Assembly: GCA_030704615.1 (NCBI GenBank) | Contig: CM060731.1 | Span: 8,804,001 to 8,868,000, forward strand | Direction: 5' to 3' | DNA from: Takakia lepidozioides | Lineage: Eukaryota; Plantae; Bryophyta | Length of the DNA: 64,000 bases | Shown here: positions 33,627-55,870 of the stretch, in pieces | How the letters are laid out: every line of letters begins with the position of its first letter | Position numbering within the stretch: position 1 is the first letter of the stretch | Translations under genes and position numbers: made by a program | Notes under the pieces: model-generated | The model's database searches: none | Seen by the model: only the letters and a program-made list of their open reading frames with translations | Told to the model about the DNA's origin: nothing

Positions 33627-36600
33627 TTACCCGATGTGAACCCAGGTAGCAACACTGGGAACACCATTGGCGACAGCAAAGAGCATGTAATACGCTGATG
33701 GTGCAATCACTGAACTGGGCGGCGAAGTTGACGTGATCCTGTAACTGTTCCCACCCGCGTTGGTGGGAGCACTCACTCCCAGCTTCAAAAGTCGTTGTCC
33801 CTGCAAGGAAAGAAACAACAATGTAGCTCATTAAGACAGTTTAAATCCTTGAACATCGAGCAGAAAGGTGTGGGTGAACCCTCGAACAGGTTCAAAGTTG
33901 AGTCTACCCTGCTCACGTATAATGACGAGGTTGGTATAAGGATTATCTTGCATTAGAGGGGCATCATATAAGATGCGAATTTGCAATCGGCCACCTCTGC
34001 TGATATTTAAAGAGTAGGATGTCCAAAGATCCTCAGGTCCGCGACAAAACCAGTTTCAAGATATGTTGGTGAAATAGAGTAGACCTTCTAACTTGAATAT
34101 TAAGAACGGAAGGAATGTCACGTGGGTACGTACAGAGGTTAGACAGGTTCGTGAAAGGTACTAGAGCATACAACAGCTTGACATATGTTCAGATAACCTG
34201 TTCAACAGTCACTGCGCAAACAAGAGTCGACACTCGAGACTCGAGAGAGGGCACCCCAATAATGGAGACTCAGAACACAGTGACAGAAACAACAAGCTAG
34301 TGTACCACAATCGTAAACTTCTCCCAAACAACTAATAACAACCACCAGCAAGCTCGGAATCGAGACAACAAGCACCTAAGAAGGAAGTCGTCAACAGGAT
34401 TACTACAGTGAGCCAAAATCTGAGTCCACCTAAGTGCTAGTGCTGTAGCTTCAAGGATCATCATTCATCACCCGGTGGGGGAATTCACGCGACACTAGAA
34501 CAGCAAGAGGAAGAAGAGAGGAATCCGAGGGAATACCTCTGGGAGGGAGTAAAGGAATTCATAACTAACCAACGAAATGCTGATCTCTTCGAATCAACCG
34601 AGAGATAAACAATGGATCTGGAGAATCGAACACACCTGAGCATACGAGTGAGTAGTGAAAGGGGCGCTGATGAGATTGAGTTGGATATTGCCTTTGGGCG
34701 CAGCTGCAACAGAGACTGTGACAGTGAAGGCCTTGCCGTAGCTCAGCGCGTTGGGAACGTTGAGCCAAGCGGGGCGGGCACCGCTCAAGTAGGGCGGCGA
34801 GAAGGCTTCGATACTGAGGTCGGTGGGGAACTGGCCGGTGAACGTGTAGAACTGGTGCGTGTTGCTGCCGGCCACCAGAACCCGGCCGTCGGGAAGCAGG
34901 TTAGCCGTGGAGTGGTAGAGGCGCGGCGTCCCGGTGGCTGCCAGAGTGTGAAACCGGGCGCCCGCGCCGGCGCCCGGGCTGTAAAGGACCGGAGTATATA
35001 CCGGGTTCTGCGCGTTACCCCATCCCTGGGACCCGGTGCCCGCCCCGTTGATGATGAGCACGTCACCGGTGGGGAGCAGGACCATGTCCCCCATGTTCCG
35101 CCGCATGGGCATGTTCTCCATGGCCCAGCCCGGGTTGGCCGACGTGGCGACGATGCGGCCGCACGTTTGGCTGGACGGAAGTTGTCCCGCCGGGTACAAA
35201 TAGGCGCCGTAGGCGGCCCCTCCGCAGACGAGAACTTCGCCAGTCGTCCATCCGTCAGCAGCCGTCAGCGGGAGGAGGACGGAGCTTCCTGCCGACGGAT
35301 AGTTTCTGGGCTCCCCGGGGATGGTGGGGAAGTTTCGGACGACGGTGTTGGTTTGCCAGTTGTAGAGGACGGAGTCTCTGTTGGCGAAGATGAAGAGCAG
35401 GTTGCTTGGGAGGAGATGGACAAACGGGTAGTAGTTGTCGTTCTCCTGATCGTTGGTCTGCAAGACGACAAAAGACACGAGCGAATCATTTCTGGTGGCG
35501 TATGAAGATGAAGAGAAATAGATCAGCACATGCGAGTTGAAGAAGGTGGAGTATACTAGTGTTTGATAAGCCTGCAGCGGCGGTTTTGTTCACGATGTAC
35601 AATGTTCAATGGACAATCAGACTGTTTAAGCTTGCGCTGATTGTACATGTACATATATATATCTGGCTATGAAGACTCTGAAACATGCAGGGTGATCAGC
35701 GCAGGCTCTGGACTTATCTGAAAGTCTAGCTTCCTCCAATCGATGGCTGCTAGGTAGATAACTTAGAAGGAGACGAGATGAACTTGAGAACTGAAAGAGG
35801 CAGGTCGCTCTCTAGTCTCGAGCTATATAAGTTATATATTGTATACGTTTTTTATTTTTTTTCCCCTTAAGATCTTCGTAGGTGCTCTCAGCAGGGCTAG
35901 AACTTTCTGCAGTAAGATCGTAATAGCTCGCCGGCTCAGAAACATTGGCCGATTATGTTCCGAACCGCTCGAGTTGAAGGTGAAAGAAAGAGTTCAAATT
36001 ACCTTCGTAAGGAGGTTCAAAGTAAACTGGCCCTGACCATTTGCTGGCACATATTCAACAGTGAAGACACTACGGCCTCCTACGACTATCTGGCGCCCAT
36101 CTGGTAGCTGTTGATTGCTCGCATACCACCGACCCGTTTGCAGATTGTTGTTCGTTTCAACCCAATCGCAGTTCCCACCACTTCCACAAGGACTGAACGT
36201 TCGAATCTGTAGACACCGAAATGCGAAGTCCTACTCAGAAATAATGCAAAATTAAAATAAAGGTCCACATGATCAATACGTAATCGAGTTCCCTCGAAGA
36301 TTGTTTGTCGCAAAGGGGAAGCAGGTCCTGTCAACTGATGCATTACCTTCGTGACTCCATCGGAGTCTCCGCCTGTTTGTACGAGAGTGCCATCGGCTCT
36401 GAACTGTCCCGATGAGCACCAAGTGTCTGTGAAGACGAATAGAGGCCTGATATTGTTTGAGCCCGGGGTGTAGATGGCTGAGTGTGCTGTACAATCATGA
36501 GTCGAAACCTGTTCATGAAAACAAATCTAGAGTAAAAACCAGATGAGCCATGGAGATTAGTAATTTGCATAACTTGTGCGTCACGCTGAATTCACACCGC

Positions 36601-37255
36601 AACCATCCGCCGGTATTGGCCGCAATATTGCAGCTACACAACTGAATTAATTTCTCGATTGACTAATTAGTGAGTGAGACCGAAAAAAGCTTGTCATTTT
36701 GCAGGGTCGTTTGATTATGTCACTTCAGAATGGGTGGACTCGCGGGTTCTTCTAATTCGACTATGTTTGATCGGGTTCATTGGGTGAAGAACGATACACA
36801 CAAGACTTGGAATTGTGGCCGAGCTACAGGAGAGATCAGTATAATAGTCTCCTCCAATAGTTCGATACACAAACCGCTACTAGCTGCTGTTCAGCTTACG
36901 CAAAGAGATGCCCGGAGAGCGTATGAACATAGCTGTTATATTGCAGCAATCCATTCCTGGAAACATGAACGTGCATGAAATAAAACTTCAAGACAGATAT
37001 GATTGAACTCACGCGGTCAGCAGCGTTATTCCTACATCGTCCCCCATTCAAAGGGAGCTGAGAGGGACCGATGTTTGTTCTGTCCAGCAATACGACGGTG
37101 CCATAGTGGGTTACTGCGGTGTGCATTGACGCAATTCCTGCATTCTTCACAACAACCTCCCATGACCCAGCTTGCGCGTCCACAGCAGATTGCAGTGTGC
37201 TAATCGACACCAAGAGAGCCTGCACTATGAGGAACAAGCGCCTGACAGTTACCAT
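33627..37255 (-). CDS. Secreted glyoxal oxidase / galactose oxidase-like copper radical oxidase (GLOX-like), 5 exons
   Basis: Signal peptide then GSWEVVVKNAGIASMHTAVTHYGTVVLLDRTNIGPS; DTWCSSGQF; RWYASNQ; NYYPFVHLLP; RNYPSAGSSVLLPL; RNMGDMVLLPTGDVLIINGA; PRLYHSTANLLPDGRVLVAGSN; APFTTHS; C-terminal IAPSAYYMLFAVANGVPSVATWVHIG*. Confidence 0.93.
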
Positions 37256-38169
37256 TGCCAGAAGCTCCTCGGAAGCTCTAGCAGATATCCACATTCCGAC
37301 TTGTCTTTCGACCGCAACAAGGCTAAACAGTCGCGTAGATCGCAAGGCTCCCTCTTCTTTTCTGCCAAGTAGGCCCACTTGGTCGTCCAAGCTCAGTCCA
37401 AATCTCCTTCAACGCAAGTCACATTCCATCGGCCCTTGGTCCGAAGGAGTCACGTCCCCGCCACCTTTAGTCTTAGCAGTACCGAGGGAGAGGATAGACT
37501 TCCGCAATACATGCGCATATAAGTAGCAGCTGAATGGACTAAAGGATTGGATCGCTGAGGCAGAGCGGTGCAGTGAACGACACTGGAGGTCAACGACTTG
37601 AACTGCAAGGAAAACTGCGAGGGGAGAAAGAGCGTGGAGTTGGTGGGGTCGGTGAGTCCCCCACTGCGCATTGCGCAACAGATGTTTAATACAGCTCATG
37701 GTGGGCGCCGCCATTGTCTCTCGCTTTGTCTCTCTCTCTTCATTTATGAATGCACTCCACGACTTCGCATCACCGACAAGCTACCTCCCTAACCCAACAT
37801 ACTTACGCTACACAGAATGCTAGCAAACAAAAGAAGCTGAACTCAGTGAGACAAATACAAAAACAACTGCAACTCCAGCAAATTGCCAGCACGAATGTCA
37901 ACCTTACCAACTGAGCAGAATAACTTACATTATGTAGATATCATAGATAAATTTGAGGATGCATTATTTACATTTTTTTACTTTATGTTTTGAAAGGGAC
38001 AATATTGGAGAGGGAAGATGATAGGAATAATGTAAGAACTTAATGCGAGCGCGTCAGGACTGTCCAGCCCTGATACCCCGTACCGCCGGCTAGGCTCGGT
38101 CAATCCGTCCCCACCCAACTCTCATCCCATCTGCTTCGTCGTTCTACGACACCAGTCCGCCACTTCCAC

Positions 38170-39205
38170 CAGTCCGCCAGTAACCACTAACCACCATGTA
38201 ACCCTCTGCAACCCATGTAACCCCATGACCCTCTGTAACCCTCACCAGGTGTAACCCTCTGTAACACCGCAGAGCGTCACCCCCCCCCCCCCTATGTAAC
38301 TCTCACTCCATGTAACCCTCTATAAAACTTTGCAACCCATGTAATCCTCTGTGACCCTCTTAACCCATGTAGCCCTCTGTAACCCATGTAACCCCATGAC
38401 CTTCTGTAACCCTCAACATGTAACCCCATGTAACCCTCACCACCATGTAACCCTCTGTAACACCGCAGAGTGTCACCCTCACCCCTATGTAACCCTCACT
38501 CCATGTAACCCTCTGTAACCCTCACCAGGTATAACCCTCACCACCATGTAACCCATATAACCCTCTATAACACCGTAGAGTGTCACCCTCACCCCTATGT
38601 AACCCTCATTCCATATAACCCTTACCACCATGTAACCCTTTGTAACACCGCAGAGTGTCACCCTCACCCCATGTAACCCTCTGTAACCCTCACCAGGTGT
38701 AACCCTCACCACCATGTGACCCTCTGTAACCCATGTAACCCTCTGTAACCCTCACCAGGTGTAACCCTCACCACCATGTAACCCTCTATAACCCATGTAA
38801 CCCTCTGTAACACCGCAGAGTGTCACCCTCACCCCCATGTAACCCTCACTCCATGTAACCCTCTTGTGACCCTCTGTAACCCTCTGTAACCCATGTAACC
38901 CTCTGTAACACCGCAGAGTGTCACCCTCACCCCCATGTAACCCTCATTCCATGTAACCCTCTTTGACCCTCTGTAACCTTCACCAGATGTAACCCTCACC
39001 ACCATGTAACCCTCTGTAACCCGTGTATCCCTCTGTAACACCGTAGAGTGTCACCCTCACCCCTATGTAACCCTCACTCCATGTAACCCTCTGTAACCCT
39101 TTGTAACCCATGTAACCCTTTGTGACCCTCTGTAACCCATGTAACCCTCTATGACCCTATGTAACCCATGTAACCCTCTGTAACCCATGTAACCCTCTGT
39201 AACTC
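38170..39205. repeat. ~1-kb minisatellite built on (A)TGTAACCC(TC) with higher-order GTAACACCGCAGAGTGTCACCCTCACCC units
   Basis: Dozens of TAACCC-containing units are visible directly. Confidence 0.95.
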
Positions 39206-39632
39206 CGCCTCGTGTCCATCATACACGTGTAAACTATCCGACGGCCGAATGGAGGTTGAAATGGAGTGAAACCCTAATTTGCTCTCTCCATCCGTTTTTC
39301 AGATTCCTAGCTCGCTCGTTTTTTTGCTTTGGGGCATCAGCTTTTTGCAATTCCCGTGGCCAATCGGCTTCACACATCAATGCGAAAGATTTGTAGTTTA
39401 TTCAGTTCAGTATCGTCCTCCCAGCAACATGCAAAACAACATTTTCCGCGCAGCGATCCGGCAAATCTATTACTACGGTTTTCTCTACGATTGATACGGT
39501 TGTCTCTATCATTTTTCTTTCTCAATGTCATTCTTGTTGTTTTGTCACCATCCCCGATGGCTATGGTATTCCTGATATCCGCATTAGGAAAGGGTTTTGT
39601 TTCTTTCGGTCTAGCCATGCAAGCAGCCGCTT

Positions 39633-40294
39633 TGTCGTGCGCATACATATCGCTACACAACTACATCGCTGTCCAAAACCACACAACACATGTGCACACC
39701 ACACACTAGTATACCACTAGTCCACCACTAATCCAGCCACTAGTCCAACCACTAGGCTACAACTAGTCAGCCACTATGGCAGTCACTAGTCCACACAATG
39801 ATAAAGAAGAAGAATACAAGCACGAGCTCACAAATCTGAAGCATAACCTCATGCATATATAACCTCATCACTCAAATACAAGTCAAGCCAAGTGCACCCC
39901 ACGCCATGGGGAATCCACACTACGGCGCCATAGCTAGGCGCGGTGAGGCTCAACTCGAGAAAGATGAGCCTTCCGCGCTTGCCGTGAAGATAACCACTCC
40001 AGGGCCTAAATCTGCCTTGACCCCTGGATTGACACTTGGGCCAATCCCAAATGTCAATATGTAAAAGCTAGCTATTTCCTAGCTAGTTTCACACTAGTGG
40101 TAAAATAACTTGACAGCTGTCGTGCGCATACATATCGCTACACAAATACATCGCTGTCCAAAACCACACAACACATGTGCACACCACACACTAGTATACC
40201 ACTAGTCCACCACTAGTCCAGCCACTAGTCCAACCACTAGGCTACAACTAGTCAGTCACTAGGCTACCACTATGGCAGTCACTAGTCCACACAA
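39633..40294. repeat. Left terminal repeat block A-B-A'
   Basis: A 39633-39798 is near-identical to A' 40118-40294. B 39799-40115 is near-identical to B' 49210-49524. The B/A' junction is TGACA-GC-TGTCG. Confidence 0.93.
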
Positions 40295-40553
40295 TCGCCC
40301 CCATAGCTGGTGCTTAGGTCCCTCTAAGTCCAGGTAGCCACAAAATGTGATAGTGACCATAGCCTCACTAAGTCCTCCACCACTATCCCTACTACACTCA
40401 AACTCAATAGATCAAGAGGCCGGGTGCAAGAGTTGCCCCATTGTTAGTCGCCGTCTTGCAACCTATGAACTTGAGCTTGGGATCTCATGTATTGACTCCT
40501 ATGAGCTTGGCCTCCCATGTCTTGTTAGCTGCCTCCAGTCATGTCCACTGCCA

Positions 40554-40700
40554 CTATCCCAAGCAGTGTGGACACAACCAATCTCCGTCAGGAACCTTCT
40601 CAAGAGGTGGTGTCAAGCATCCCATATGCCAACCCCTTGAGCATCGATCACACACCAGCATGGTGGCTGCCCCTTTGGCAGATTCACAGAGCATGCACCT
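40554..40700 (-). CDS. PHD finger at the C-terminus of the retrotransposon integrase
   Basis: CMLC...MLVCDRCSRGWHMGCLTPPLEKVPDGDWLCPHC is a canonical C4HC3 PHD finger. Confidence 0.93.
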   Translation of the reverse strand, partial: RCMLCESAKGAATMLVCDRCSRGWHMGCLTPPLEKVPDGDWLCPHCLG

Positions 40701-43700
40701 CAAACCTGCAGGTACCACTGCCAAGTTTGGGTCAACTTTGCCATCGACATTGGGAAGGTGACATGGCGCACAATTACGCACATGGTCCTTCCAAGTCATG
40801 CCATCCCGACCCTCCAAGATCAGGACCCCTGAGGGCAACACCTCTCGAACCCTCAGAATAACACGCCCTGCAGTAACATCCAGAGTCGTAGGAGCAGTCT
40901 GCTGCAAATAAACATAGTCACCAGGGCTAAACCTCCAAACCCCAGGACGATATCCTCCACCACGTATAGTGGCATACCTCAACGTATCACGGTGTTGTGC
41001 AATGGCAAGGTTCTCAAAAGCCATGGGCATCACTTTCTTGAACAACTCTGCACGCTGATCACATGCACGTACCCACACGTCCGGATCGTCAAGGTTAAGA
41101 ACTTGAGCAGTGTCCCTACGAATGGCTGCAGGCAAATCCGGCTCTCGCCAAAGAAAAGGAAATATGGTGAGAAGGAGGCAAGTGATGCTTGTTTGCTGAA
41201 CCTGTAGCCCATGGCTAACCAAGGAACCTGAAGATCCCAATCTCCTAGGTGTCCCTTCTGCAAGCCATACTTGCGCAAACCCCTCTTCACCGTCTGAACA
41301 ACTCTCTCTGCTAAGCCATCGGCCTCAGGATGATCCTGAGAAGTGGTGCGGTGGTCTATCAAGGCTTTATCACACAAAGCCTGAAACTCCCCCAAAAACT
41401 CTCTCTCTTGGTCCGTGAGTACCTCAGCTGGAGCACCAAATCGGCTAAGCACACGATCCAAGAATGCATACGCAGCCCCCTCACTAGCCTTGTCAGGCAA
41501 TGGAACCAACTCAATCCACTTGGAGAAGTGCTCCACCATCACCAACACATATCTGTGGTGGCGCATAGTCAGTGGCAACGGTCCTGCGAAGTCAAGACTC
41601 CACCTGTAGCCCAATCCCATGATTGGTAAAGGATGCAACTGTGGTGTAGGGGCGTTGAATGAAGCACGCACCCTGTCACACACCATGCACCTAGCCACGA
41701 ATTGTTGCACCTCTGTATGCATACCACGCCACCAATACTGCCCCTGCAGTAAACTGTGAGTGCGTCGCACTCCAAAATGCCCCAACTCCTCATGGGCATG
41801 CCGCACTAACCGTGCATGCTGTGTGGGGTGAGGCACAATCCTCACCCGACCATCCTCCCACACTCGAAGTAGGTGTATCCCCTCCCACTTGAACATCTTG
41901 GCTCGTTGCAGGATCCGATCCCTCTCCCTGGCAGTCACAATGGCTGCCGTGTCTCCCGTGCGGAGGTAGTCCAACACAGCCGAATCCTCATGTATATCTC
42001 TGGCACCACCTAGCTCAACACTAGCCTCAGGGTCCTCAGACACTCCGTCTACAGTCATCCCTGTTGTAGGTCCAATCTGACCTCCCGATGCCAAGATACA
42101 CAAAAATGCAGATGCGTGTCATCCCGGCATCATCTCCTCGTCCGTCTCATCATGCCACCGAGCTCCAATGTCATCCTGCTGGCTCATGCATGGATTGCGA
42201 CTCAATCCATCCGCATCCCGATTGACCAAACCCGGTCGATGCACAACCTGAAAGTCATACTCCTGGAGTATAAGTGCCCACCGTGCAAGCTTCCCTGTAA
42301 GCTTGTCTGACTCCATCAACCACTTGAGTGGCTGGTGATCCGTGACAAGGGTGAAAAGATTGCCGTATAGATAGCACCTGAAGTGTGCCACGGCCCACAC
42401 TGCAGCTAAGCACTCTCCCTCATATGAGCTGTACTTAGCCTCTGCAGCGTTGTTCGAGCGGCTAGCGTAAGCCACTACGAACTCTCTTCCCTCATCATCC
42501 ACCTGTGTGAGCACCGCTCCAAGCCCCAGCATGCTCCAATCCGTATGCAGCTGAAAGGGACGCCCCCTGATAGGTCGTCTCAGGATAGGCGCCGAGCTCA
42601 ACCTCGCCTTGAGCTCTTGAAAAGCTCGTTCCTGCTCATCTTCCCACTGCCACTCCTGGTCACCTTGGTCAGCTTGGTTAGAGCCTTTGCAATGGTACTA
42701 AAATCCCTTGACAAACCGTCTATAATAGTTTGCCAACCCCATGAAAGCTCGAACTCGGCTCACATCCGTGGGGCGTGGAATTTGTGCAATGGCCTCTACC
42801 TTAGTCTATTGTACCCCCAATCCTCCAGGATATATCATGTGACCCAGATACTCAATCTGGTTGTGGAAAAACTTGCACTTCCCCGGATGCAACTTCAATC
42901 CGTGCGCTCTCAAGCGCTCCAATACCACCTGAAGGTGTCTCTCATGCTCCTCCATCGTAACACTAAAGATGATGATGTCATCTATGTAGCACCGAGCAAA
43001 GTCCACCCTGCTAGAATCCTATCCATGACTCTCTGAAACTCTGCAGGAGCATTCTTAAGCCCAAATGGTAAGAACCGCCACTGATATAGGCAATCCTTGC
43101 CGTGCTCATTGATCCCCCAGAATGCCGTCTTCTGCTTGTCCGCCTCCTTGATTGGCAACTGGTGATATCCGGATCGTAAATCCAAAGTGCTAAAGGCCTT
43201 AGCATGCCCGATGGCATCAAAGATCTCCTCTGGTGTTGGCATGGCATACTTATCGGACTTGGTCTGACGATTTACAGGCCGGTAATCACCGCACATACGT
43301 CTCTCCGTCCAATTGCCATAGACATCCTTCTTGGCTGGCATCACTGTGGCTGAAGCATACTCTCCACCAGAGAGCTCCACCAAACCTGCCTCCCAGAGAT
43401 CTTGAGTCCTCATCTGAATCAAAGACCTCTCCATGTCACTGTATCTATAGGGTCTCCGAAAGATTGGCGTGTCAGTGGCCAACTCAATACGGATCTCTTG
43501 ACCCTTCAGTGCTCCCAAGTCCTTCAAACTGAAGGCAAAGCAATTCCTGTAAGCCCTCAGGAACCGCCGTATACGTCGTCTCTCTCCTCCGGTGACAATG
43601 GGTCCAATGTCAGGCTCCCAATTGTCCTCCGTAACTGCAACCTTAAGTCCAGTGGGCTTAGAGGTAGATGACGCGTCCAGTGGTTGCTATGTTGCAACCT

Positions 43701-43989
43701 CTTGAGCAGTACTCCCTGCCTGCTCAGTCAATGACAAGGCCTCATCCTGCCCCATCATCTCATCCTTGAGACCTCCTCAACCCGAGAAGAATCCCCAACC
43801 TCATCCATCACAGCCGCCTTGGCTGCCAACTCCCTCTGAACCTCGAGCACCTCCCACGTGTGCCATGGATGCATGCACCCCGTGGTCCTCACATGCTCGC
43901 CCCCACTCACTGCCTGTACCGTCTCGGTAGGCAGAGAGACCATTGAGGGAAGTGTACTCCGCACTCTGCGTTGCTCAGCCAGAGCCAAG

Positions 43990-44960
43990 CTGATAATCCA
44001 GGTCAAGCAATTGAGATCCATTGCTTGCCCCAACACTTGACGACGTGATGCCTCAGAAAGAGACGACACCGCCGTGGTACCAGTGGTAAAACCCATTGCC
44101 CGCTCACGCTCGTCAGCATTAGGCTCCACTAACTGCTGCAACTGAGCATCCCACAGGAGGCCAGGTCCACTATCCCGGAAAGCATGCGATCCTGGGAAGC
44201 TGAGCAGTGTAGGTAATGCTGCTCGTGGTTGACCCACCTTGTTGACCCACCTTGTTGACCACTGCCAAAGGCGAACGGTCATCGTGTCTCACACGCTGAG
44301 ACTACCTCCCTGTGTCTAGAATGTTATCCACTGTGAGATGTGCTGGCCGTTGCACCCCATCAAATGCACGCTTGAGCAGTGCAAGGTGGCATCAAGTTAG
44401 TCCACCATAGCCGTGGACGATGAGCCCGTGACCCCACTGTAGCTGCATCTAGCAACACTGCTGACCCAAGCCACGACCGGACTTGATGCACACTAGCCAT
44501 CACCCTGGCCCGAGAATCGCCCATCAGTGGCACATTCTCCAAGATGTATGCTGGAGATACAGCTTGATGAAGCTGCAAGTGGCGCAAAACCCGCACCATC
44601 TCCCAAAACAGACCCGACCTCGAGTCTCGCAATCCATTGCCATGCCCGGCTGATGAATGCCCTTGGCAGGGCCAACCTGCCACTACCAGATCAATGGAGC
44701 CAACCCGCTCCAAATCATGCGCCCCCAGCATCAAAATGTCTGCTGGCAAGGCCTGCTGATATCCACGAATTGCAGACACCGACAACAACTCAGGGTACCG
44801 CTGCACCAACTGAGCAACATGGCAAAGTGAAACGCGTCGTGCAGTCTCATCCCTCTCCACATACAGGTAACGCCGAACTCGTACACCTGCTTGTAACACA
44901 GCAGCCAATCCGGTGCTGATCCCGCCAAACAAGTCCAGAAGACAAATGCCTTCATCCGGA
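43990..44960 (-). pseudogene. DNMT3-like C5-cytosine DNA methyltransferase domain inside gag-pol (frameshifted)
   Basis: Motif I LLDLFGGISTG, II YLYVE, IV DLVVAGWPCQ (catalytic PC), SGLFWE, VI YILENV, VIII AHRPRLWWTN, IX ERERAMGF, X RRQVLGQAM. Confidence 0.93.
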
Positions 44961-47589
44961 TATTGCCACACAATAGGTGTGGTGTCCAATGGAGACAATT
45001 GAGGTGGTCCTGGTGCAATCCCCACACTCTCCTCCTCTCCTGACGGTACAAAAGCCTCCACCCAGGCTTGTTGCACCCGTCGATCAGCATCCCGTTGCAA
45101 ATCCTTGCTCGTGCCCCACAATGGAGTCTGAGCAACCATGGTAGGCAACTCCGCCATACCATACATGTCATCCTGCTCTCCCGGAGGTGGTACATCCTCT
45201 GAATGAGCATTGCCCTCAAGCAACTCTCTAGGCCAACTCACTGCCGCTGTGAATGCTGCTAGTGTCGGCATCTTGCCTTGCTGGGCAACCGCAACTCCTC
45301 CTATGAACGTCACAGGGAGCTGCACACGCCGGCCCTCCCCTGACTGCCATGCAGCCTATAGGAAGCTGACTCCTCCCAAAAATCCAGGGTGAAGCCCATG
45401 GGTACAACCACTGCCCCACCAACCAGGACATCGTATGAGACTGCGTCTGTCACAATGGCCTTGGCTCGCATCACTGAGCCATCTGTAGGGTGATCCGGCC
45501 GTAGTCTGATAGCCAACTCACGCCGTGTCATGCCCGAGCCTGCTCCGATCCTCCCAGAGACGTCTGTATCTGGAAAGGACAAGGCTCCATATCCGCCTCC
45601 GTGAGGCCCAAGCCTGCAATAGCAGCTCTGCCCAGCATCAATGGCTGAGCTCCCGAGTCCAACAAGACCCGCAGTGGCCGGTACCTCTTGCCTGCCGGTC
45701 CACTCAAACAGAAATGCCATCCTGGTTGTCTAACATGACAACTCCAGGTGTCACCATGGCGCGCTCAATGGCTGGCCTAGGGCAGCTCCATCAACCTGGC
45801 AGCTGCAGCTTGCCATGGCGCCGCCGTGGCAGTCTTCAGCAGATCCACCTCTGGTCCCATGGCCCTCTGGCAGGAGGTGGACTCCCCTCCAACCTGAGCT
45901 GTAGCCTGGCAGCAGCCTCTGCTCTAGCTGCTGAAGCCGTTGGCCATGCCTTGGTCAACACCCTGACCTCCGCGTCCTTGGCCACGTTGAGCTTGCCCTT
46001 GGCCTGCACCTCGTGGCTGGCCACCTCGTCCTCTCTGGGCTGCTCCACCTCGCCCCCGGCCACCATTGTTCCCTTGGAACTGGCCTGGGCGCAACTCAGG
46101 ATGCAAACCATAACACTGGGCCTCTCCATGCCCGTGCTTGCCACAATGCCCACACTGCACTGTGCAGGCTGTGCATGTGCCGGCCCTTTGCCTCCCTCTG
46201 GCAATCCTTCTTGACATGGGGTCCTCCACATGTCCAGCACACCACATCCGCCCGTTGTTGGCCAGCAAATGAAGGGAGAGACCCCTGCATCTGAGGTCCT
46301 CTCCCCTTCCCTGAGCTTCACCTGAGCCCCCTTGTTGCCTTGAGCACGTTGAGGTAGTGGTTGGCTAGGAGCACCACTACCCCGTGGTGTCTCCTTAGCA
46401 AATCCCACCATGACCACTCGTTCCTCCACCATGTTGACTCTATCCGCTCTGCAAGCAAAACACATTTGCTAAGGTGGGTTGGGCCGCTTGTAGGAGAGTT
46501 GCATCCCGCACCCTTCTCCTCAGCTCCTTGTCCAATATCCCATACCAGAATTGGACTGCCTGAGCTTCCGTAACCCCTTGGGTTACATTTATCAAGCGCC
46601 TCATGCGAGTGAAAGCCTCCCTCAAGCTCTCGTCGGCTTCCGTTGGAACTCTTGCAAGCTCCGCAACTTCTCTGTCCTCACCCCTTGGTAGTTCCCTCTC
46701 AACTCTTCGAAGAACTCCACAACAGGGTTGAAGGCAGGCACGGGTGCTAGTGCTGGTGCGGTAGTGGCTTGGGTGGACGTCGTAGCTACTGTCCACCAGT
46801 CCCACTAGTCCACTGCTACTGCTGAAGCTGCCGGTGCAGCGGCAGGTGTAGCCACTGCCCTCGTGGCTCTAGTGCCCCTAGTGATGGGACACTGAAGGTG
46901 CCTAAACCCACACCGAGTGCCTCACGCAGTCACCTCCGTGTTGACACTCCCGGTCAAACATGTCCCTAACCCCCTCTCCACAAGGTAACCGGGTAGAGAA
47001 CCTGTTGCGGCTTTGGTTTACCCTAGTACCTGCATCCACCGCAAGCACTCCTATGGTTGGCTGGTCATCACCTCCAACCTCACCACAGGAGAAACAATGA
47101 TGGTCTGGCTGGTCATCACCCCAGCCTCACCATCGACAGCATGCTCTAGGACTGGCCGGTGATCAAATCCGGACCAATCACCTATAAAAACAAGCGCCCA
47201 CACAAAACTAGCATGGCGCACAGTCAAGCATGCAGGTATGGAGGGGATCCAAACACAAGAAATCAGAACGACAACTCCCCCACACCAAAAACAACTCCAC
47301 GGTGTTGCTCTTGCAAGGACACCCCAGCCCAAACCCGGACTGACTCTTGCCTCCACCTACGGAAAGGTCTTGGCCTAATGAGAGGGTGGAAACTACGAGG
47401 AAGAGAAGCTAAAGCAATAACCCCAGCATGCCCTCATCCCAACACTCTTCCTCTCCTCTCTTCCCTCACTTGCATGACCATGGGAATATCATGAAGATAC
47501 TCCTCAAACCGCCCTCCACGAGCTTCAAAATTCGGCCTTCAGACCACATGCCAGTCCTTAGGCAGTCCACCAGTGCCTCCACGAGTCAA

Positions 47590-47875
47590 CACGGGCCACA
47601 CAACCACCACAGCCCACACAGCTCACTGGTCACAGCCGTCACAGTCCCACAGGCCACTGGGCACAGCCTGTCACAGCCCGTCACAGCTGCCCACAGCACT
47701 CACAGCCCACAGTCACAGGCCACTGGCACAGCCCCACAGCCCACAGTTGTCACAGCCCCTCACAGCCCAGTGTCACTCAGGGCCCACAGCCCCTAAAGGC
47801 CTCAGGCACCACACCCCTCACAGCCCAAAGGCCAACAGCCCACAGCCCCACAGCCCTCACAGCCCCACAGGCCAT
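47590..47875. repeat. CACAGCCC tandem repeats in the retrotransposon 5' leader
   Basis: Many CACAGC(C/T)C units are visible. Four further ~100-bp-spaced (G)CATGCTCCACA(CA)TGC motifs lie at ~48390-48705. Confidence 0.85.
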
Positions 47876-49167
47876 CATCTGCCCCATCCATGGCCGCTCT
47901 GGCAGTTTAGCCATTTCTCCAAGGGGTTTAGCCACGCCAAGCTAGGGTTTGTGTCTCTTGGACTCTAGGCTTCTTTCCACCGAGCTATGGCGGCTGTGAG
48001 GAAATCAGCAAGGTATTCTTGCTCTTTCGGCTCCCACACACCACCATAGTAGCCCTAAGCCATGAGGGGGTTGCCACAAACCAAGCCTTCTTTCTCACTT
48101 AGCCTCCCCAAACACGCCACTAAACTCAATGGCAAACAACCAAGCCTGCTGGTTCCCAGCCCTTGTGAGCACTCATTCAAGCACTCTCCTTGGCCATAGC
48201 ATCTGTCTTAGAGCCTATTCCAGCCCCCTACACCTGCTGCTTCAAGAGTTGCGCTCCCTTCAAGCTTGAAGTTGAAACCCCAACTCACATAGGCCCTACA
48301 AGTGCTTTTCTTTCACTCCAAGTGGAAACCAGCCCTAGACCTTCCGTTCTAGCTCTCTAAAGCTTGAAAACAAGAGCCTCAATGGGCTGAAGGCATGCTC
48401 CACACATGCCCCACTCTCACCATAAGAGAATCAGCTCCTTTGCTTCATTTCTTGCACCCACAAACCTGAAAATACAAGCTTCAGCAGGCTGAAAGCATGC
48501 TCCACATGCCCTACAGGGAAACCAGCCCCTTCCTTCCTTTCTTGCACTCCCACACCTGAAAGTGCAAGCCTTCACCAGGCTGATAGCATGCTCCACACAT
48601 GCATTGCCCTCACATAAGGGAAGTCAGCCCTTCCCTCTTCCTTGCTTGCCCTCCAAGCTTGAAGATGGAAGCTTCAATGAGCTGAATACATGCTCCACAC
48701 ATGCAACCTCTTCACACAAGATATCAGCCCCCTATCTTGGCTCCTTGGCTCCTTGATGCTCTCTAAGACAAGACTAAGCACTCCACAGCCTTTGCCAAGC
48801 TCCTGAAACCCTAAGGCTTACATTTCCAGCCACCCTCGTTGGTCTGCAATCCTTCACACAATGAAAGCTCGCATTCCCAAGTCCAGTTCTCAGCTTTGCC
48901 ACCAAAGCCACTATAACCTGCTCTTGACTGGTCCTCTTCCCAATCGTGCTTGCTCATGCATGTACACAATCTGAAACCATCAAGGTGCTCTGGAATTACC
49001 TGCAGCATGGTGCTTTCATCTCTGAAGCTGAAGATCGAATGCCAAGGTCTACCACCTCGTAACCCACATCGCCTCCGCTTCTAACAACCAAGAGCTCCAC
49101 GTGTGCTCCTTGCATAACAACTTGGTTTCTCTCATTCTCAAGCAAAAACCACAAGTGCTACAACTAA

Positions 49168-49209
49168 CTCGTATCTGGCACTCACAGATACGAGCTCATC
49201 TTTCTCGAG
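49168..49209 (-). other. Self-priming-type primer binding site plus adjacent hairpin
   Basis: The 16 nt abutting B' (49194-49209, GCTCATCTTTCTCGAG) are the reverse complement of 49363-49378 inside the LTR. A 10-bp stem CTCGTATCTG/CAGATACGAG lies at 49168-49194. Confidence 0.75.
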
Positions 49210-49524
49210 TGATAAAGAAGAAGAATACAAGCACGAAGCTCACAATCTGAAGCATAAACTAAATCATTATAACCTCATCACTCAAATACAAGTCAAGCCA
49301 AGTGCACCCCACGCCATGGGGAATCCACACTACGGCCCATAGCTAGGCGCGGTGAGGCTCAACTCGAGAAAGATGAGCCTTCCGCGCTTGCCGTGAAGAT
49401 AACCACTCCAGGGCCTAAATCTGCCTTGACCCCTGGATTGACACTTGGGCCAATCCCAAATGTCAATATGTAAAAGCTAGCTATTTCCTAGCTAGTTTCA
49501 CACTAGTGGTAAAATAACTTGACA
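49210..49524. repeat. Right terminal repeat B' (partial 5' LTR)
   Basis: TGATAAAGAAGAAG...AAATAACTTGACA, a copy of 39799-40115. Confidence 0.95.
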
Positions 49525-50469
49525 GCTTATTTGACGGGGTGCCCATTCACTCTCCTCTCATGTATCTTTTGTTCACACAACAGCCGGGGGCTCCTACTCA
49601 TCGTTATTCTGGATGCAATACGTATCGGATCATGCGTGTTACATGTCTGATGGTGTTATATGACTGCGTCCATGTGCTATGGTTTCACACAGGGGTTCAC
49701 GGTTTTTTTCTTTCTCAATACATGGTGGCTTGGTAGACGGTTTAGTAATGGAGGTTTAGATGGGGTTGACATATTTGATGGGTTACGTGGATGTTGCGCT
49801 CGCAAAGCCACATAGGCTAGGGTTACATGGGTGGGGCGTTACGTTGGGGGATGCTAGAGTGTGAGCCCAGGAAAGAAACCCATTGCCCGCAAAACGTCTT
49901 CATCCATAATTACCCTGCAACCGCAAACAGAAACCCCAACCTTGTCAGCCTAGGGACCCACCTCAACCCCAACAGTGACCTCGTCATCCCGCCCTGTGCA
50001 TGATACTGCGCACTGACATCATCCATGGGACCATCCATGCATGGAACATTCATCCACAGTGCACATCCAATCTGGCTTCATCCATCCAAAAACATTCATC
50101 CTCCATCCATCCAACCAAATATTGGTGTGATGGCATATGTCCCATGACTATCTACTGGACTATGCACATATTCATCTCTATTGAAAAACTTTTATTGAAT
50201 GCACACGGTTGAATTGGAGAGCAATGTTTAGAAGGAAAACACTTTCAAATTCGTAGGACGCGGGGGAGAGAATGTTTCAATTCAGGGATGTGAATTTCAT
50301 TGTAGTCCGTGCTCATTACAACGGATGGTGGGAAAGAAATGGTGGTGCAACGGAAAAACGGAGAGTGTTCCCCTCATGTTCCATAAATGAATGCCCTCAA
50401 GTACATCCGTAGGTGGTGTCAACACTGCTACTGCTACCACTGGAATCTGTTGTACTGCTAGAAGTACTG

Positions 50470-53400
50470 CTACCACCTGAGTAGGCCAGTGAAAATATCT
50501 GCATCTCCTTCCATACCAAACAAGTGCATGTCCCCTGATTTGCAAGCATGGTAAGAAGCGCCTGCAAGAGACAAAATGATGGAATTATACTTTTAGAATA
50601 TTGAGTAAAAGTGCAGAAGGAAAGAATCGATGACAAAGGCAAGAAGAGAAACCTGTGCCCAGAGTGAGATCTATGATGCGGGCCCCTGGCCGAGAACAAC
50701 TCTCAATGATCGTTTGGATAAAAGCCGGGCTTTTTTCACGGGCCCCTCTCCAAGGCGTTTCTATTTGGCTTTCGCAAACATATGTTGGAGTCCACATAGT
50801 TGTAGTGCATGTCATCGACGACAGGATCGAACCTCTCGTTTATGAAACATCCTCCCCCATGAAGTTCGAACTCCACCACTGTGGTGGGAGTCGACAGTGG
50901 ATGTACCCTCACGAGACAGACGGCCTCAAATAGACGGGTCTGCGATGAAGAGGTCAATAATTAGTGAGGATGTTTCAGCACATCTGGGTGGGAGTGCAGA
51001 CCCATTCCGGATGGAACGGGTTTAGAGTCATTGCTCCTGCACCGCCATAACTGAGTGCGCTGAAGCACTCAATTCAGGCAGTGCGAACCGCATGACTTCA
51101 TACCAGTCAACAGTGGAAGTTCAACAGAAAGGCATAAAAAAAGTATTGAAACGTACCTTCTGCCTTGGGAAATCCCCCTTCGTCAGATATAGGTTGTTGA
51201 CACAATTCTAGGTCTTGATAATCCGCATCCCCGAGGCTTTCGAGTAGCTTGCCAGCTCCCCGGCGACATCTCATCGTGACAGATTGTATGATAACAAGAA
51301 CCCCTGCATCGGAAAGGAAAAACTTGCAAAAGGAAAATACCCAACTCCAATACCTCTCGTCAAATTTGTTCCATGTTGGGCAGGTGTTACTGGGCAGAAT
51401 ATCCAGGACTGGATGCCCGTCCGGAATGTCCACAATAACCATCTCCGAAGCAAAACGGTTTCAGTGCACCATTCACCCAAGATTCCTTCCCCCTCCATGC
51501 CTGCAAGCAATATAGCGTGTAAGAAGGGGAAGATGTTTTATAAGCGACCTTTCTGATCCGAGTAAAAAATTAACAAAGAAAACAAAACACAAACACGTGC
51601 ATGATAATTGCTTACCGATTGGAGAAAAACACATAGCTTGTCCCAAGTATTGGAAGGATCACCACTGTAACTTGACTTCCTTGTCTCCATCATGGCTAGG
51701 AACCCGTCGTTTACCAGCTCGCACGTGCCCGGAAAAATGATTCTAGATGGGTGCTCCATTGCATCGTAGGGCTCTTTAAGACCCTTCTTCTTTCGGTCAG
51801 GCTTTCTGGCTGGGGGTGGGGTCTGCACTGGCCCCGGTTGCACCGCGGACTCCATCTCATTCTCATTCGGAGTGGTTTTCTGCCCCTTTACCTTCCCTTT
51901 CCCCTTGTCCTTTCTAGGCTTGACTGGCGTATTCTGTGCAAGAGGCTCTTTCTCAGCCAATATCCTCAAGTTTTCTCATGCAAACTCCTTCTCCGTTAGA
52001 GGGGCCAAGGCTCTGCATTGTCGTTTTGATTTCGGGTCACAAGCTCAGACCAAGGGCATCCAGACCGTGGGGATATCCATATACCAGCAGCAGTCTCGAA
52101 GATGCGAGGTCTCGTAATCCTTCAAAATCCCTGCAGTGTACATTGTCTGAGCGTTGGATGGATCATACCATAGGTCAATAAAGTGCGGGTGTCGACTCAG
52201 GTTATTGCCTGGAATGAGAACGTTCTTGATGTACCTACACAATCAAAACAAAGGGAATATTAGTGAGTGGGGAAAGTGTGAGATAATAGTTTAAGGACCC
52301 CTTGACTGTGTGCGCCAGCGCACTCAATTTTGGTCTGTCCACCCAGGCCCTACTTACAAGCCAGAGCATATGTGGTTCAGTACAGGATCGGATATTCGTA
52401 TGTAGAATGAAAGCTTGGGAGACACAGAAGTGCCCACCCCTTTACTGAGTGCGTCAGCGCACACAATTTTGGGACTGTTTATTCAAAAGAGCAGGGCTGC
52501 AACGAAATCGAAACTTCGTGAGACAGACGTAGTCTTCTAGAGTATCCGTCGGTGGAGTCATAGTTATCTTGTAATCGTTCAGCTGCTTCTCCAGCACCAG
52601 CTGTGCCCGAGCCTCTATCTGCGCAAGAACAGTTCTACAATTCAGAGAAAAGATGTTTAAGAAGAGTAAGTGACTTTTCCCAGTGCAATGCAGATTTGCA
52701 GTGGAATGGAAAGGGGAGAGGAAAAAACCTGTGCCCAGTACGTGGCTTTGTGCAGCCACATATCGAGAACATGGTCACTGAATTGCTTTATGACTCATGT
52801 TTCCTTGTTCTTCTCACTCTTCAGAAAGCAGTGGTTATCTTTCACTGTCGGGTCGGCGTTCCAAATCTCAAGCCATTTCACTTTCACCTCTGGCTCCACT
52901 ACGGCAGTGGACAGGCGATGAAGCTTCTCCTGCATCATTTCGGGCTTGGTGTTCACGTTCCAGTGGATCCTGACCTGATTCAAGAACTTTGGGCCAAAAG
53001 CAGGGTCGGCTATTCTGAGTTGTTTCACGAACGCGCTCATGTAGTGCCTCTTCGCCACCTCCATCTCTTTGTTCATAGATTCTTCCACTCCTTTTGAGGA
53101 TCGTTCCCCTGGGTCTTTTTTTGCATAGTACTCTGCTTTCCCTTTCTCTCCAGCCTCCGCAATCTCTTGCTGAACATTCCAGTATACAACTTAGTAGTCA
53201 ACTGGTTTTATGAATGAACAAGTAGACAGAGCTAGGGAATGAATACTTACAGCATACATGTAGTCACAGAAAGCCTCCCTGGTGAGCTTGTACCATGTGT
53301 CGGCGGATTTGGAGGTCTCGCACTTCTTGTAAGCCTCAACACTGATAAGGTTTTTGAAGGTGACCAGTGGCATTTGGCCCACCTTTTGTATCCTAAATAG

Positions 53401-55870
53401 AGTGTGGACCAAATTCGTCGTCACGTTTGCACTTTCGGTTCCCCTGCAGTCCCACACAAACACTATGACTTCCTCCTTCACCAGGAAATACAAAACAGAC
53501 AGAACAAATCGGAGAATTCTGATGGCATGAAGGGTGAGCATTATACTTACTTGTTGATGTCATGCATAGCCGTCAGAAGTGTTGTGACGTTTCCTTCGGA
53601 TCCAGCACCATGGACGCCACAAGGTAGTGCCAGTCCTCGTCTGTGCTGTGATATTTGTTTATGACGTTCATCCAGGCCATGAAGCGGTGATTGCCATCCC
53701 AAATATGAAACATTTTCCCGGAGAACACTTGTGTGGACAGTCTCCTCGAAATCTGGGCTTCAAACTCCTCGTTTACTTCTCGCCATATTGGATCCCAGCT
53801 TTTCACAATTGACTCGTCCACCAAGACCTCCTGTCCACTGGCATCGCACAATGACACGTAAAACACTGGAGACCCCTCTATGTATCCGTGACTAAAATCC
53901 TGCTCCAACTTGGACACATCCCCGGTCAGGGCAGGTCGAACGATTGGCATTGATATTAGGCGGCAGAGAGGGATCATAATCTTGCCTCCAGGTACCTGCA
54001 TAGACTTGATCACCTGCGCGGAATTGACCTTCTGGTACATGAGGACCTTTGCCGCTCTTTCTTCGTAGAAAGGATCGTCTTCTTCAACAGGCTTCTCAGT
54101 CACTGCCTCCTCCTGTTGCTGCTGCTTCTCAGGCTGCAATCCTTTTCTTTTCCTCCCCTGCACCTCCCACAATTACAGCCTTTTCGTCATTCCACATCTA
54201 CATTTTCCTGATCTGGCACCTACAAGAATTGAGTGCGGTGGCGCACTCACTTTCGAGACTCACAAAGGATCGGAACATACAAACATCAGTTCTCCAAAAC
54301 TACACATATAACCCTCATTTCCTGTCAATCGGAATTGAGTGTGGTGGCGCATTCATTTCTTGGACACCTTCCATGACATCTATGAAATTATGTTCATTGC
54401 AGGCACTCCATCTCTACTCAGTCAATGGCTCCTTTGTCACTTCCTCTTCCACATTGTGTGCTTCATTCTAGAGGCAGAAACTGAGTGCGCCACCACACTC
54501 AAAACTGTACAAATATATATTCAGTTAAAAACCGGATTCAAAATCAACTTCGACTTACATACTGTCTTCAAATATCTGCGAGTCCACTGTTAAAATTGAG
54601 TGCGCCACCACACTCAGTTTCCAGGGTGTTCTGATGTTCGCCCCATAACTAAAAAAGAATGCTTTCCAATTTTCACAATCATTTTCACTTTGTAGTTCAT
54701 CTCAGACATCATCAAATCAACCATCTAAAGGTGCTCAAAAAACTGAGTGCGGTGGCGCACTCATTTCTGGGAGCCCTTAACCTACTTTCTCTTTCGAGCA
54801 CACCAGGGTCTTTACCTCTGTCCACGAAGATGGTCGACCTCACCTCAGAACTGAGTGCGACACCGCACTCAGTTTCAAGGTTATCGTTTCTGTCTATCTG
54901 AAAACTCAAAAGAGATCTCGATTTGAATGAAACACACTTTCTAACTTTCGTTTCACCTCTCTCATAAGCAAACTGACCATTCTATGGTGATCCAAAATTG
55001 AGTGCGGTGGCGCACTCAGTTCTGGGAGCCATTAAATCTGTCTGCCTACTTCTGTTTTGAGTTCATTGGGGTCTTCACGTTTGTCCAAAAACATTTGTCG
55101 ATCACACCTCTGAACTGTGTGCGCCAACGCACTCAGTTTCCAAGTTAGACTTAATGTGATTCTCAGAACTCATAAGAGATCTCACTATGGAATAAACGCA
55201 CTTTCTATCTACCGTTCACCTCAGGCAATAGCAACTCAATGATTCCATGGAGCTTAGAAACTGAGTGCGGTGGCGCACTCAGTTCAGGGTGGCTACTCCA
55301 CTGTCTCTTGGACCTAAACTGTGAACATCACCTTCCTCTTTCCCTAATGCCCAAGTGATCACCCAGCATCCAGTTGAAATGAGTGCGCCACCGCACTCAG
55401 TTTCCCCTTGTCCCTCTCAGGGTTCCGTTTCAGATCCTGCTGCCTCTAAGACTTTCTTATTCACCTCGGCCTACAATGGAAGTGATAGAGCTCCCCTCAA
55501 AACTGAGTGCGGTGCCGCACCCAATTTTCAGGGGATCTCTCGTATCCTGTCTATGCACTTGGTATGACAGTCAAGCGACATTTATGCAGTTTGGGAGAAG
55601 GATTACCCTGGGTTTCATGACACCACTTCCCGATGCATCTTCTTGTTGCGTCCTCACAACTTCCCTTGGTGTCGCTTCTTTCTCACCGACGGTGGTGGTG
55701 TCGATGTCCATGTCATGCACAATGGTCTCCGTGGCAGTCTCCTCCCCTTCCCTTCTTCCCTCCATTTCAGGCTGGCCCGCCTCTGTGATCTGTTCTGATT
55801 CGTGGGTTGACGTATCCTGTGCAACCTGCTGATCATCAGCATTTTGCACATTGCGCAACTTTCTCATTCT
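50470..55870 (-). pseudogene. Spliced gene: acidic N-terminus + ParB/Srx-like domain + beta-class N4C/N6A DNA methyltransferase; degenerate
   Basis: ParB-like: IPLCRLISMPIVRP...FHIWDGNHRFMAW (53573-54172). MTase: VIVDIPDG (motif IV position), WNKFDERYWSWVFSFCKFFLSDAGVLVI, then PWRGAREKSPAFIQTIIESCSRPGARIIDLTLGTG|ASYHACKSGDMHLFGMEGD, matching HPTxKP..I...S.PG..VLDPF.GSGTT......R..IG.E. GT-AG introns separate the segments; multiple stops and frameshifts. Exon joining is by eye. Confidence 0.72.
54226..55527. repeat. Array of 11 ~28-bp palindromes AAAYTGAGTGCG-(GTGG/CCAC)-CGCACTCARTTT
   Basis: Cores start at 54230, 54336, 54482, 54597, 54744, 54852, 54999, 55116, 55262, 55380 and 55504. Three outliers at 51052, 52307 and 52446. 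Confidence 0.92.

Follow-up and report, generated by a model that had tools for sequence, protein, structure and literature searches.

A land-plant retrotransposon of the Gypsy-DNMT3 type with permuted terminal repeats

Introduction

What does a cytosine methyltransferase do inside a land-plant retrotransposon, and how does an element built in this way make its copies and insert them? The locus that raises this question lies in a 64,000-nucleotide stretch of Takakia lepidozioides DNA, hereafter the window. A sequence-only reading had placed a full set of C5-methyltransferase motifs between the protease and the reverse transcriptase (RT) of a Ty3/gypsy element and knew of no description of such elements from land plants. 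The family itself is known, since de Mendoza et al. 2018 described KnitGypsy-Dnmt3 of Klebsormidium nitens, including purifying selection, and the legend of their Figure 4c gives these elements DIRS-like repeats together with Gypsy domains (PMC5890265). The accessible text of a later article repeats the 2018 result (PMC12344493), and a 2026 preprint names 'streptophytes (Gypsy-DNMT3)', its accessible text containing none of the terms 'land plant', 'bryophyt' and 'split direct' (bioRxiv 10.64898/2026.05.21.726589). Neither 'PHD' nor 'methyltransferase' occurs in the main text of PMC6317226, and the accessible part of PMC6453930 does not mention such elements. In the literature covered we found neither bryophyte nor chlorophyte members described, nor the readthrough stop or the end mechanism reported below; some of this may stand in supplementary trees of the papers from 2018, 2025 and 2026, in subscription journals, in theses or in Repbase. 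The claim of novelty in land plants therefore stands in part, as the occurrence is real and no description was found, but the family was published for Klebsormidium and the preprint, as far as accessible, names streptophytes.

Results

The methylase and its element

The domain order gag-PR-RT-RH-INT with a DDE integrase is that of Ty3/gypsy, and the element that includes the methylase covers 9.9 kb (39633-49524, minus strand) between copies of a 4-bp target duplication (Table 1). All six motifs named in the sequence-only reading (FGG, PCQ, ENV, RxR, IX and X) were found where it had located them, in canonical order, with the protease motif upstream and the RT motif region (42977-43299) downstream. 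The HMM search proposed there matched the region to PF00145 (E=1e-12), and in the gag region Pfam gave no match at E 0.1.

Table 1. Features of the element, listed in element sense (positions in the window)
Feature	Position	Strand	Basis
Target-site duplication, 4 bp, AAGC in element sense	49525..49528	-	sequence comparison
Repeat A1, begins TGTC, ends TTATCA; element 5' end	49210..49524	-
Stretch of 17 nt in A1, complementary to the primer-binding position; predicted self-primer and 5' end of the RNA	49362..49378	-
Primer-binding site directly behind A1; no TGG start	49194..49210	-
5' non-coding stretch, long; short tandem repeats 47607-47874 and 48324-48730	46870..49193	-
gag, several frames; CCHC knuckle 46113-46154	45700..46868	-
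Aspartic protease; VLLDSGAQP 45642-45668	45415..45668	-	motif by eye; relatives have PF13650
DNMT3-like C5 methyltransferase, motifs I to X	43990..44960	-	Pfam, motif reading, profile and structure comparison; broken in assembly between VIII and IX
Methylase motif I, ICLLDLFGG	44921-44947	-
Methylase YVERD	44849-44863	-
Methylase motif IV, AGWPCQG	44660-44680	-
Methylase motif VI, YILENV	44531-44548	-
Methylase motif VIII, AHRPRLWWTN	44396-44425	-
Methylase motif IX, ERERAMGF	44088-44111	-
Methylase motif X, LGQAMDL	44013-44033	-
In-frame TAG then CAA CCA; predicted readthrough stop, gag-PR-methylase versus RT-RH-INT-PHD	43681..43689	-
Reverse transcriptase and RNase H	42119..43680	-	PF00078, PF17917, PF17919
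DDE integrase; HHCC 41678-41794; D 41582-41599, D 41405-41419, E 41297-41317	40900..42118	-	Pfam, motifs
PHD finger, integrase tail	40557..40700	-	Pfam
Purine tract TGGGGGCGA directly before B1; predicted plus-strand primer	40295..40303	-
Repeat B1, ends CGCACGACA	40118..40294	-
Palindrome GACA-GC-TGTC at B1/A2 junction; predicted integrase cut site	40112..40121	.
Repeat A2, first 188 bases identical to A1	39799..40115	-
Repeat B2, ends GACA; element 3' end	39633..39798	-
Target-site duplication, 4 bp	39629..39632	-	sequence comparison

The likeness to DNMT3 proposed from motif VIII was borne out by profile and structure comparisons. DNMT3A/3B ranked first among the solved structures for the window piece (E 2e-9), and a 32-row methylase profile gave 2e-27 for DNMT3A/3B, 2e-16 for DRM and 5e-9 for M.HhaI. 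With an AlphaFold model of the unbroken relative L007 (pLDDT 91), all the matches listed were DNMT3 chains. The domain is intronless and DNMT3-like without rearrangement, and keeps the key residues, the comparison set being free of host plant DNMT3. The catalytic Cys was kept in 72 of the 73 metagenome loci and in 74 of the 75 tree sequences, these counts of motif conservation being biased upward for the metagenome loci, which were collected via methylase peptide patterns.

The window insertion is young, because the first 188 bases of A1 and A2 show no difference. The few differences between A1 and A2 cluster near the 3′ end of A (window 49240-49270 versus 39830-39860) and reflect either recombination between variants or assembly error. 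The copy had been described as frameshifted, and the 13-bp tandem duplication cited for this is present in the window sequence (44228-44260). However, 8 of 10 single-base losses relative to sister contigs (among the 12 of 106 indel rows listed) fall in homopolymer runs, a sign of errors in the long-read consensus and not of age, so some of the frameshifts are probably artifacts of the assembly.

A joint of the two flanks (39628>49525) was found in contigs from runs X1 and X2, which come from the same sample, and from run X5 of a second study, and represents either an empty allele or a paralogous flank; the contig comparison gave 3 shared letters at this joint versus the 4 seen in the window. 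Summed contig depth in X1 was 8,000-40,000 for the element versus 29 and 147 for the right flank, with the methylase bins about as deep as the RT bins. This evidence on sister copies points to a high-copy element family carrying the methylase, summed depth being distinct from copy number.

A conserved stop codon between methylase and RT

A TAG codon (43687-43689) separates the methylase from RT in the window. An in-frame stop stands just before RT in all 25 loci for which both anchors could be located, as TAG or TAA with CAACCC behind it, as well as in the window and L006 (both TAG CAACCA), L066 (CAATCA) and L067 (CAGTTA). This conservation across loci indicates that the TAG is not a product of decay, and that the methylase is the tail of the Gag-protease ORF. 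In unbroken relatives the methylase is in the RT frame, yet is parted from RT by the conserved TAG/TAA in a readthrough-type context. The sequence CAR-YYA is a readthrough signal known from tobacco mosaic virus, and four of the stop contexts fit it. Readthrough would supply a rarer RT-RH-INT-PHD product, and the methylase would be packaged at Gag levels. The Klebsormidium and Closterium proteins differ in this respect, as methylase and RT run through with no stop.

Host range, selection and descent

Using the methylase as query, 75 relatives were found at E<=1e-10 (proteins of 351-2000 aa), up to 80% identical, with Marchantia polymorpha (many), Calypogeia fissa, Sphagnum, Closterium and Klebsormidium (KFL_009030040) as named hosts; the family comprises 563 clusters at 50% identity. 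Elements of Scenedesmus, Tetrabaena, Pleodorina, Chlamydomonas eustigma and Hariotina follow a second arrangement, RT-RH-methylase-INT-PHD. When proteins were collected by integrase alone, 43 of the 86 had the methylase and a single one (P0406) lacked it, 35 began within 250 residues of RT and were not judgeable, and 7 held neither RT nor methylase. The domain is therefore not indispensable, as the relative without it indicates.

Absence from sister copies, or neutral evolution with loss of the catalytic Cys, had been named beforehand as outcomes that would speak against a methylase belonging to the element. The domain was instead present in relatives and sister copies alike, and selection on it was purifying. 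Between the window and 73 metagenome loci (of 80 collected, mostly of a family with Sphagnum as the closest named proteins), dN was 0.23 and dS about 1.8 for the methylase, giving a dN/dS of about 0.13 with the Cys retained in all but one locus; for RT, dN was 0.19 and dS about 1.9 against 41 loci (dN/dS 0.10). Loci of young divergence showed a methylase dN/dS of 0.6-0.8, as expected from decay after insertion. Horizontal transfer between moss and Sphagnum-type families was considered and is not needed, the synonymous sites being near saturation.

In the RT-RH tree of 85 sequences, the group with the methylase before RT (window, Marchantia, Calypogeia, Closterium and Klebsormidium) had a support of 0.997; in the methylase tree, the chlorophyte-type group had a support of 0.65 and two long branches strayed. 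Both trees separate the two arrangements, and 20 of 32 well-supported RT splits recurred in the methylase tree (60 shared sequences). The trees were built with FastTree and midpoint-rooted, with neither outgroup nor host DNMT3, and Sphagnum P0016 and P0058 were too short for inclusion. As read from these trees without outgroup, the pattern suggests one old capture of the methylase and one move within pol. A recent phage source finds no support in IMG/VR, where the scan with P0402 gave nothing, that with the methylase profile only distant viral methylases (24-44% over short stretches), and that with the chlorophyte-type profile one 4-kb contig and two weak matches.

Taken with the published description, membership of the window element in the Gypsy-DNMT3 (KnitGypsy-Dnmt3) family is close to certain. 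The two share Ty3/gypsy domains, an unrearranged DNMT3-like domain before RT, purifying selection and, as far as the Klebsormidium repeats are known from the figure legend, a DIRS-like repeat order; KFL_009030040 is a direct match for both methylase and integrase. The window element differs in its land-plant host and high copy depth, and the accessible description of KnitGypsy-Dnmt3 does not mention a self-primer, purine tract, palindrome or 4-bp duplication (PMC5890265).

Several observations were made alongside. In the chlorophyte Ty3 elements P0220, P0399, P0402, P0426 and P0435 the methylase lies between RNase H and integrase and is often missed by Pfam; for P0426 the protein-atlas annotation lists PF00145 and nothing further. 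A G-patch is added in some chlorophyte elements (P0244, P0303). The RT-RH-INT-PHD of a Coleochaete scutata transcript (P0368) shares 80% identity with the window integrase and groups within the bryophyte-type elements, a finding due to strong constraint, transfer or contamination.

Permuted ends of the element

A canonical LTR element has two equal LTRs at its ends, a primer-binding site after the first and a polypurine tract directly before the second. The window element departs from this layout, as its repeats follow the order A1-genes-B1-GC-A2-B2, with the purine tract before B1, 180 bases ahead of A2, and with B2 after A2. The complete order was found in the window and four further distinct loci, L026 (=L056), L058, L060 and L070, and its 3′ part in L057, L064 and L007. 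Among the ten elements with both ends, the 4-bp target duplication was exact in eight and matched at 3 of 4 bases in the other two. All integrated copies seen begin at A (TGTC) and end at B (GACA).

The primer-binding site pairs with a stretch inside A1. In the window the pairing was 16/16, versus a best of 12 among 200 shuffles, and although the sequence of the site differs among three families (window, Sphagnum-type and L067), the best-kept copy of each pairs 16/16. Self-pairing exceeded all 200 shuffles in 9 of the 21 A1 ends, the remaining ends being those of decayed copies. A tRNA-primed site would begin with TGG; tRNA priming was judged solely by the missing TGG, and no tRNA genes were found within the window. 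A TATA box lies 26-27 nt ahead of the self-primer stretch in two families, and only a weak one in the window.

A G-rich purine tract precedes B1 in all three families, and the B1/A2 junction is GACA-GC-TGTC or a decayed form of it, palindrome and purine tract both being found also in the distant L066 and L067. At the A2/B2 junction the end of A is joined bluntly to the base that follows the purine tract in the window, L026, L058 and L070; L057, L060 and L064 show substitutions relative to this exact joint. B1 and B2, like A1 and A2, share element-specific variants (for B, 5-13 differences within versus 7-19 between elements), which indicates that each pair was copied from one template. The mirror isoform A-B-A-genes-B was not found, as B precedes none of 20 distinct A1 ends (19 loci and the window); L067 was kept outside this count, for its order of B, A and primer site looks like a collapsed, permuted assembly. 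Nine distinct loci stop at B1 without A2-B2, one of which (L036) shares its flank with the A2-B2 copy L057, and these may be later deletions by B1-B2 recombination or assembly collapse.

Two minor points concern the junctions. L012 (=L020) is a deleted copy with half of A, 9 nt of the primer site, B and a 4-bp duplication; reading it (L012:13186-13474) as a circle junction with a kept primer site was rejected, since an internal deletion explains it equally. In old copies the internal CAGCTG at the B1/A2 junction (L026, L056, L057, L058, L067 and L070) often carries C>T or G>A changes, as would be expected of a methylated CHG, the comparison being confined to this site.

Discussion

Replication and integration

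We lean slightly toward a reading of the whole in which this land-plant Gypsy-DNMT3 copy would make its methylase with Gag, methylate new DNA in the particle and integrate via the internal palindrome; for the last step, taken by itself, the balance of probability is a little more favorable. The RNA would start at the A1 stretch that pairs with the site behind A1 and would prime itself as Tf1 does. Reverse transcription would then give a linear B-GC-A-genes-B-GC-A, the true LTR being B+A. Because this linear product would start with B and end with A, and integrated copies start with A and end with B, we propose that the DDE integrase would cut the upstream GACA-GC-TGTC with a 2-nt stagger, leaving CA-3′ ends and 2-nt overhangs, and that the natural ends would be joined before (as a two-LTR circle) or after strand transfer. 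In the accessible text, foamy virus integrase is described as cleaving palindromic LTR-LTR junctions (PMC1180852).

The missing mirror isoform weighs on this proposal. A symmetric two-LTR circle with two equal palindromes should also yield A-B-A-genes-B, and the count of 0/20 speaks against it, so that an unexplained bias for the upstream palindrome must be assumed; our guesses as to its source are that the upstream LTR becomes double-stranded earlier, or that the downstream site is methylated. A cycle like that of DIRS and PAT elements would yield A-genes-B-A-B only and would thus fit the count, and it likewise uses the internal palindrome; the window element and split-direct-repeat elements agree exactly in repeat order. 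In such a cycle the RNA would run from inside A1 into B2 and be primed at its 3′ end, the B1-A2 junction would template both lost ends, and the circle would be integrated at the restored B/A junction, with the DDE integrase replacing the tyrosine recombinase and the methylase acting on the cDNA as above. It leaves unexplained, however, the co-varying primer site directly behind A1, the purine tract directly before B1, and an A2/B2 junction that equals both boundaries joined, and we regard it as unlikely. That the element is a one-off capture of a host DNMT3 fragment, now decaying, with odd ends due to local rearrangement or misassembly, is hardly credible; the window copy is indeed broken in many places, but the same architecture recurs in dozens of loci and in named genomes, selection is purifying at saturated dS, and the end structure is alike in three families, with an empty site of matching duplication.

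The A1-genes-B1-A2-B2 order is common to the window element and the split-direct-repeat DIRS elements (PAT, TOC1, Ngaro and SymbioDIRS-Dnmt3), from which it differs in having a DDE integrase and a 4-bp target duplication. To our knowledge, DIRS elements lack target duplications. A Pfam scan of 10 ORFs gave rve and no recombinase, and a six-frame motif scan for a tyrosine recombinase gave only four loose matches, in other genes or off-frames. A primer site complementary to the element's own repeat is shared with Tf1/Sushi and the plant Tcn1 chromoviruses (Neumann et al. 2019, PMC6317226, as far as accessible), a likeness drawn apart from any RT kinship to Tcn1, Phygy and Selgy; the window element differs from them in its PHD finger, methylase and permuted ends, and no chromodomain was found. 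With the foamy virus and HIV-1 integrases acting on two-LTR circle junctions it would have in common a palindromic end-to-end junction as substrate. According to the accessible text of these reports, junction cleavage is there a side route, from natural ends (PMC1180852, PMC1905944), whereas in the window family the junction belongs to the LTR itself, with CA and TG separated by 2 bp, and sets all the integrated ends observed. Gypsy-7a_cRei of Chlamydomonas reinhardtii, active in the laboratory, has a PHD finger and LTRs of unequal length, the right one exceeding the left by 8 bp, and the figure legend from which we draw this likeness lists no methylase (PMC9940879, Figure 6A); it possibly has the same permuted ends with a tiny B.

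Role of the methylase

As judged from sequence, the most likely role of the domain would be packaging with Gag and action on nascent cDNA, and we give methylation of element cDNA by the methylase a little better than an even chance. The least certain step concerns the purpose of the marks, which would silence the new copy in advance or disguise it, and may protect from integrase the second palindrome that is retained. It is also conceivable that the domain was kept for another job, namely DNA or RNA binding in the particle, RNA methylation, or methylation of target chromatin together with the PHD finger, and the following speaks for it. The Klebsormidium domain gave no methylation in yeast, a test that its authors, in the accessible text, call inconclusive (PMC5890265); the Pro of motif IV is often replaced by Glu in relatives (ECQ in 28 of 75); the PHD finger resembles those of the CHD4/KDM5/BAZ2 type; and the CpG content is unremarkable, the observed/expected ratio of the element being 0.51 versus 0.45 and 0.69 for two other retroelements of the window, a comparison in which no element-specific trace of methylation was found. 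Against another job, the Cys, ENV-type, RxR and SAM-binding motifs are kept across algae and bryophytes, the fold is that of DNMT3 and not of DNMT2, and the place in the Gag ORF suits action within the particle, so that we hold it to be improbable. For comparison, the DNMT3 carried by SymbioDIRS is described as active on CG in yeast (PMC5890265, accessible text).

A broader form of the cDNA-methylation reading, which we consider doubtful, would make the elements an ancient green-plant Ty3 lineage, from chlorophytes to bryophytes, in which the cDNA ends no longer serve for integration, the DDE integrase always opens a built-in palindromic LTR junction and all insertions are circularly permuted. 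The Gag-borne DNMT3 would mark new DNA and thereby prevent cutting at the second junction that is retained, as well as at the junctions of hundreds of genomic copies, following the logic of restriction-modification.

The methylase itself is expected; the main interest is in the host range, the expression at Gag level and, above all, the permuted ends. DNMT3-bearing retrotransposons are extended from one alga to liverworts, mosses, several charophyte groups and chlorophytes, and since Marchantia polymorpha has annotated copies, genetics there can test the role of a transposon-borne methylase, a question open since 2018. If the end model holds, these would be natural LTR elements with an LTR-LTR-type junction as normal substrate, which bears on the old question of whether integration truly proceeds from such junctions. 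The ends of these elements would be mis-called by LTR finders, and through the methylase ORFs the number of DNMT3 genes annotated in bryophytes can come out too high.

Surroundings of the element in the window

An array of GTAACCCT-type repeats (38190-39230) lies just outside the 3′ end of the element, and beyond it a glyoxal/galactose-oxidase-like host gene (34597-37408, minus strand). The best named matches of a glyoxal oxidase exon were mosses and a clubmoss; in the exon tree, drawn from a set without hornwort, it fell in a clade with only mosses as named members (support 0.995), none of them close, so that by this gene the host is probably a moss. Two sets of non-LTR-type RT ORFs, labeled by eye, lie on the plus strand (25058-30364 and 56692-58296), one an endonuclease-RT with a duplicated 300-bp tail and the other a second RT. 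Exons resembling oxysterol-binding protein (15323-18596, minus strand) contain KPFNPLLGETFE, which we take to be the motif of that protein. A 42-nt motif (TGAGTGCGGTGGCGCACTCA core) is present in eight dispersed copies at 51047-55540 around broken minus-strand ORFs, one of which has DGNHR, presumably a ParB-like motif.
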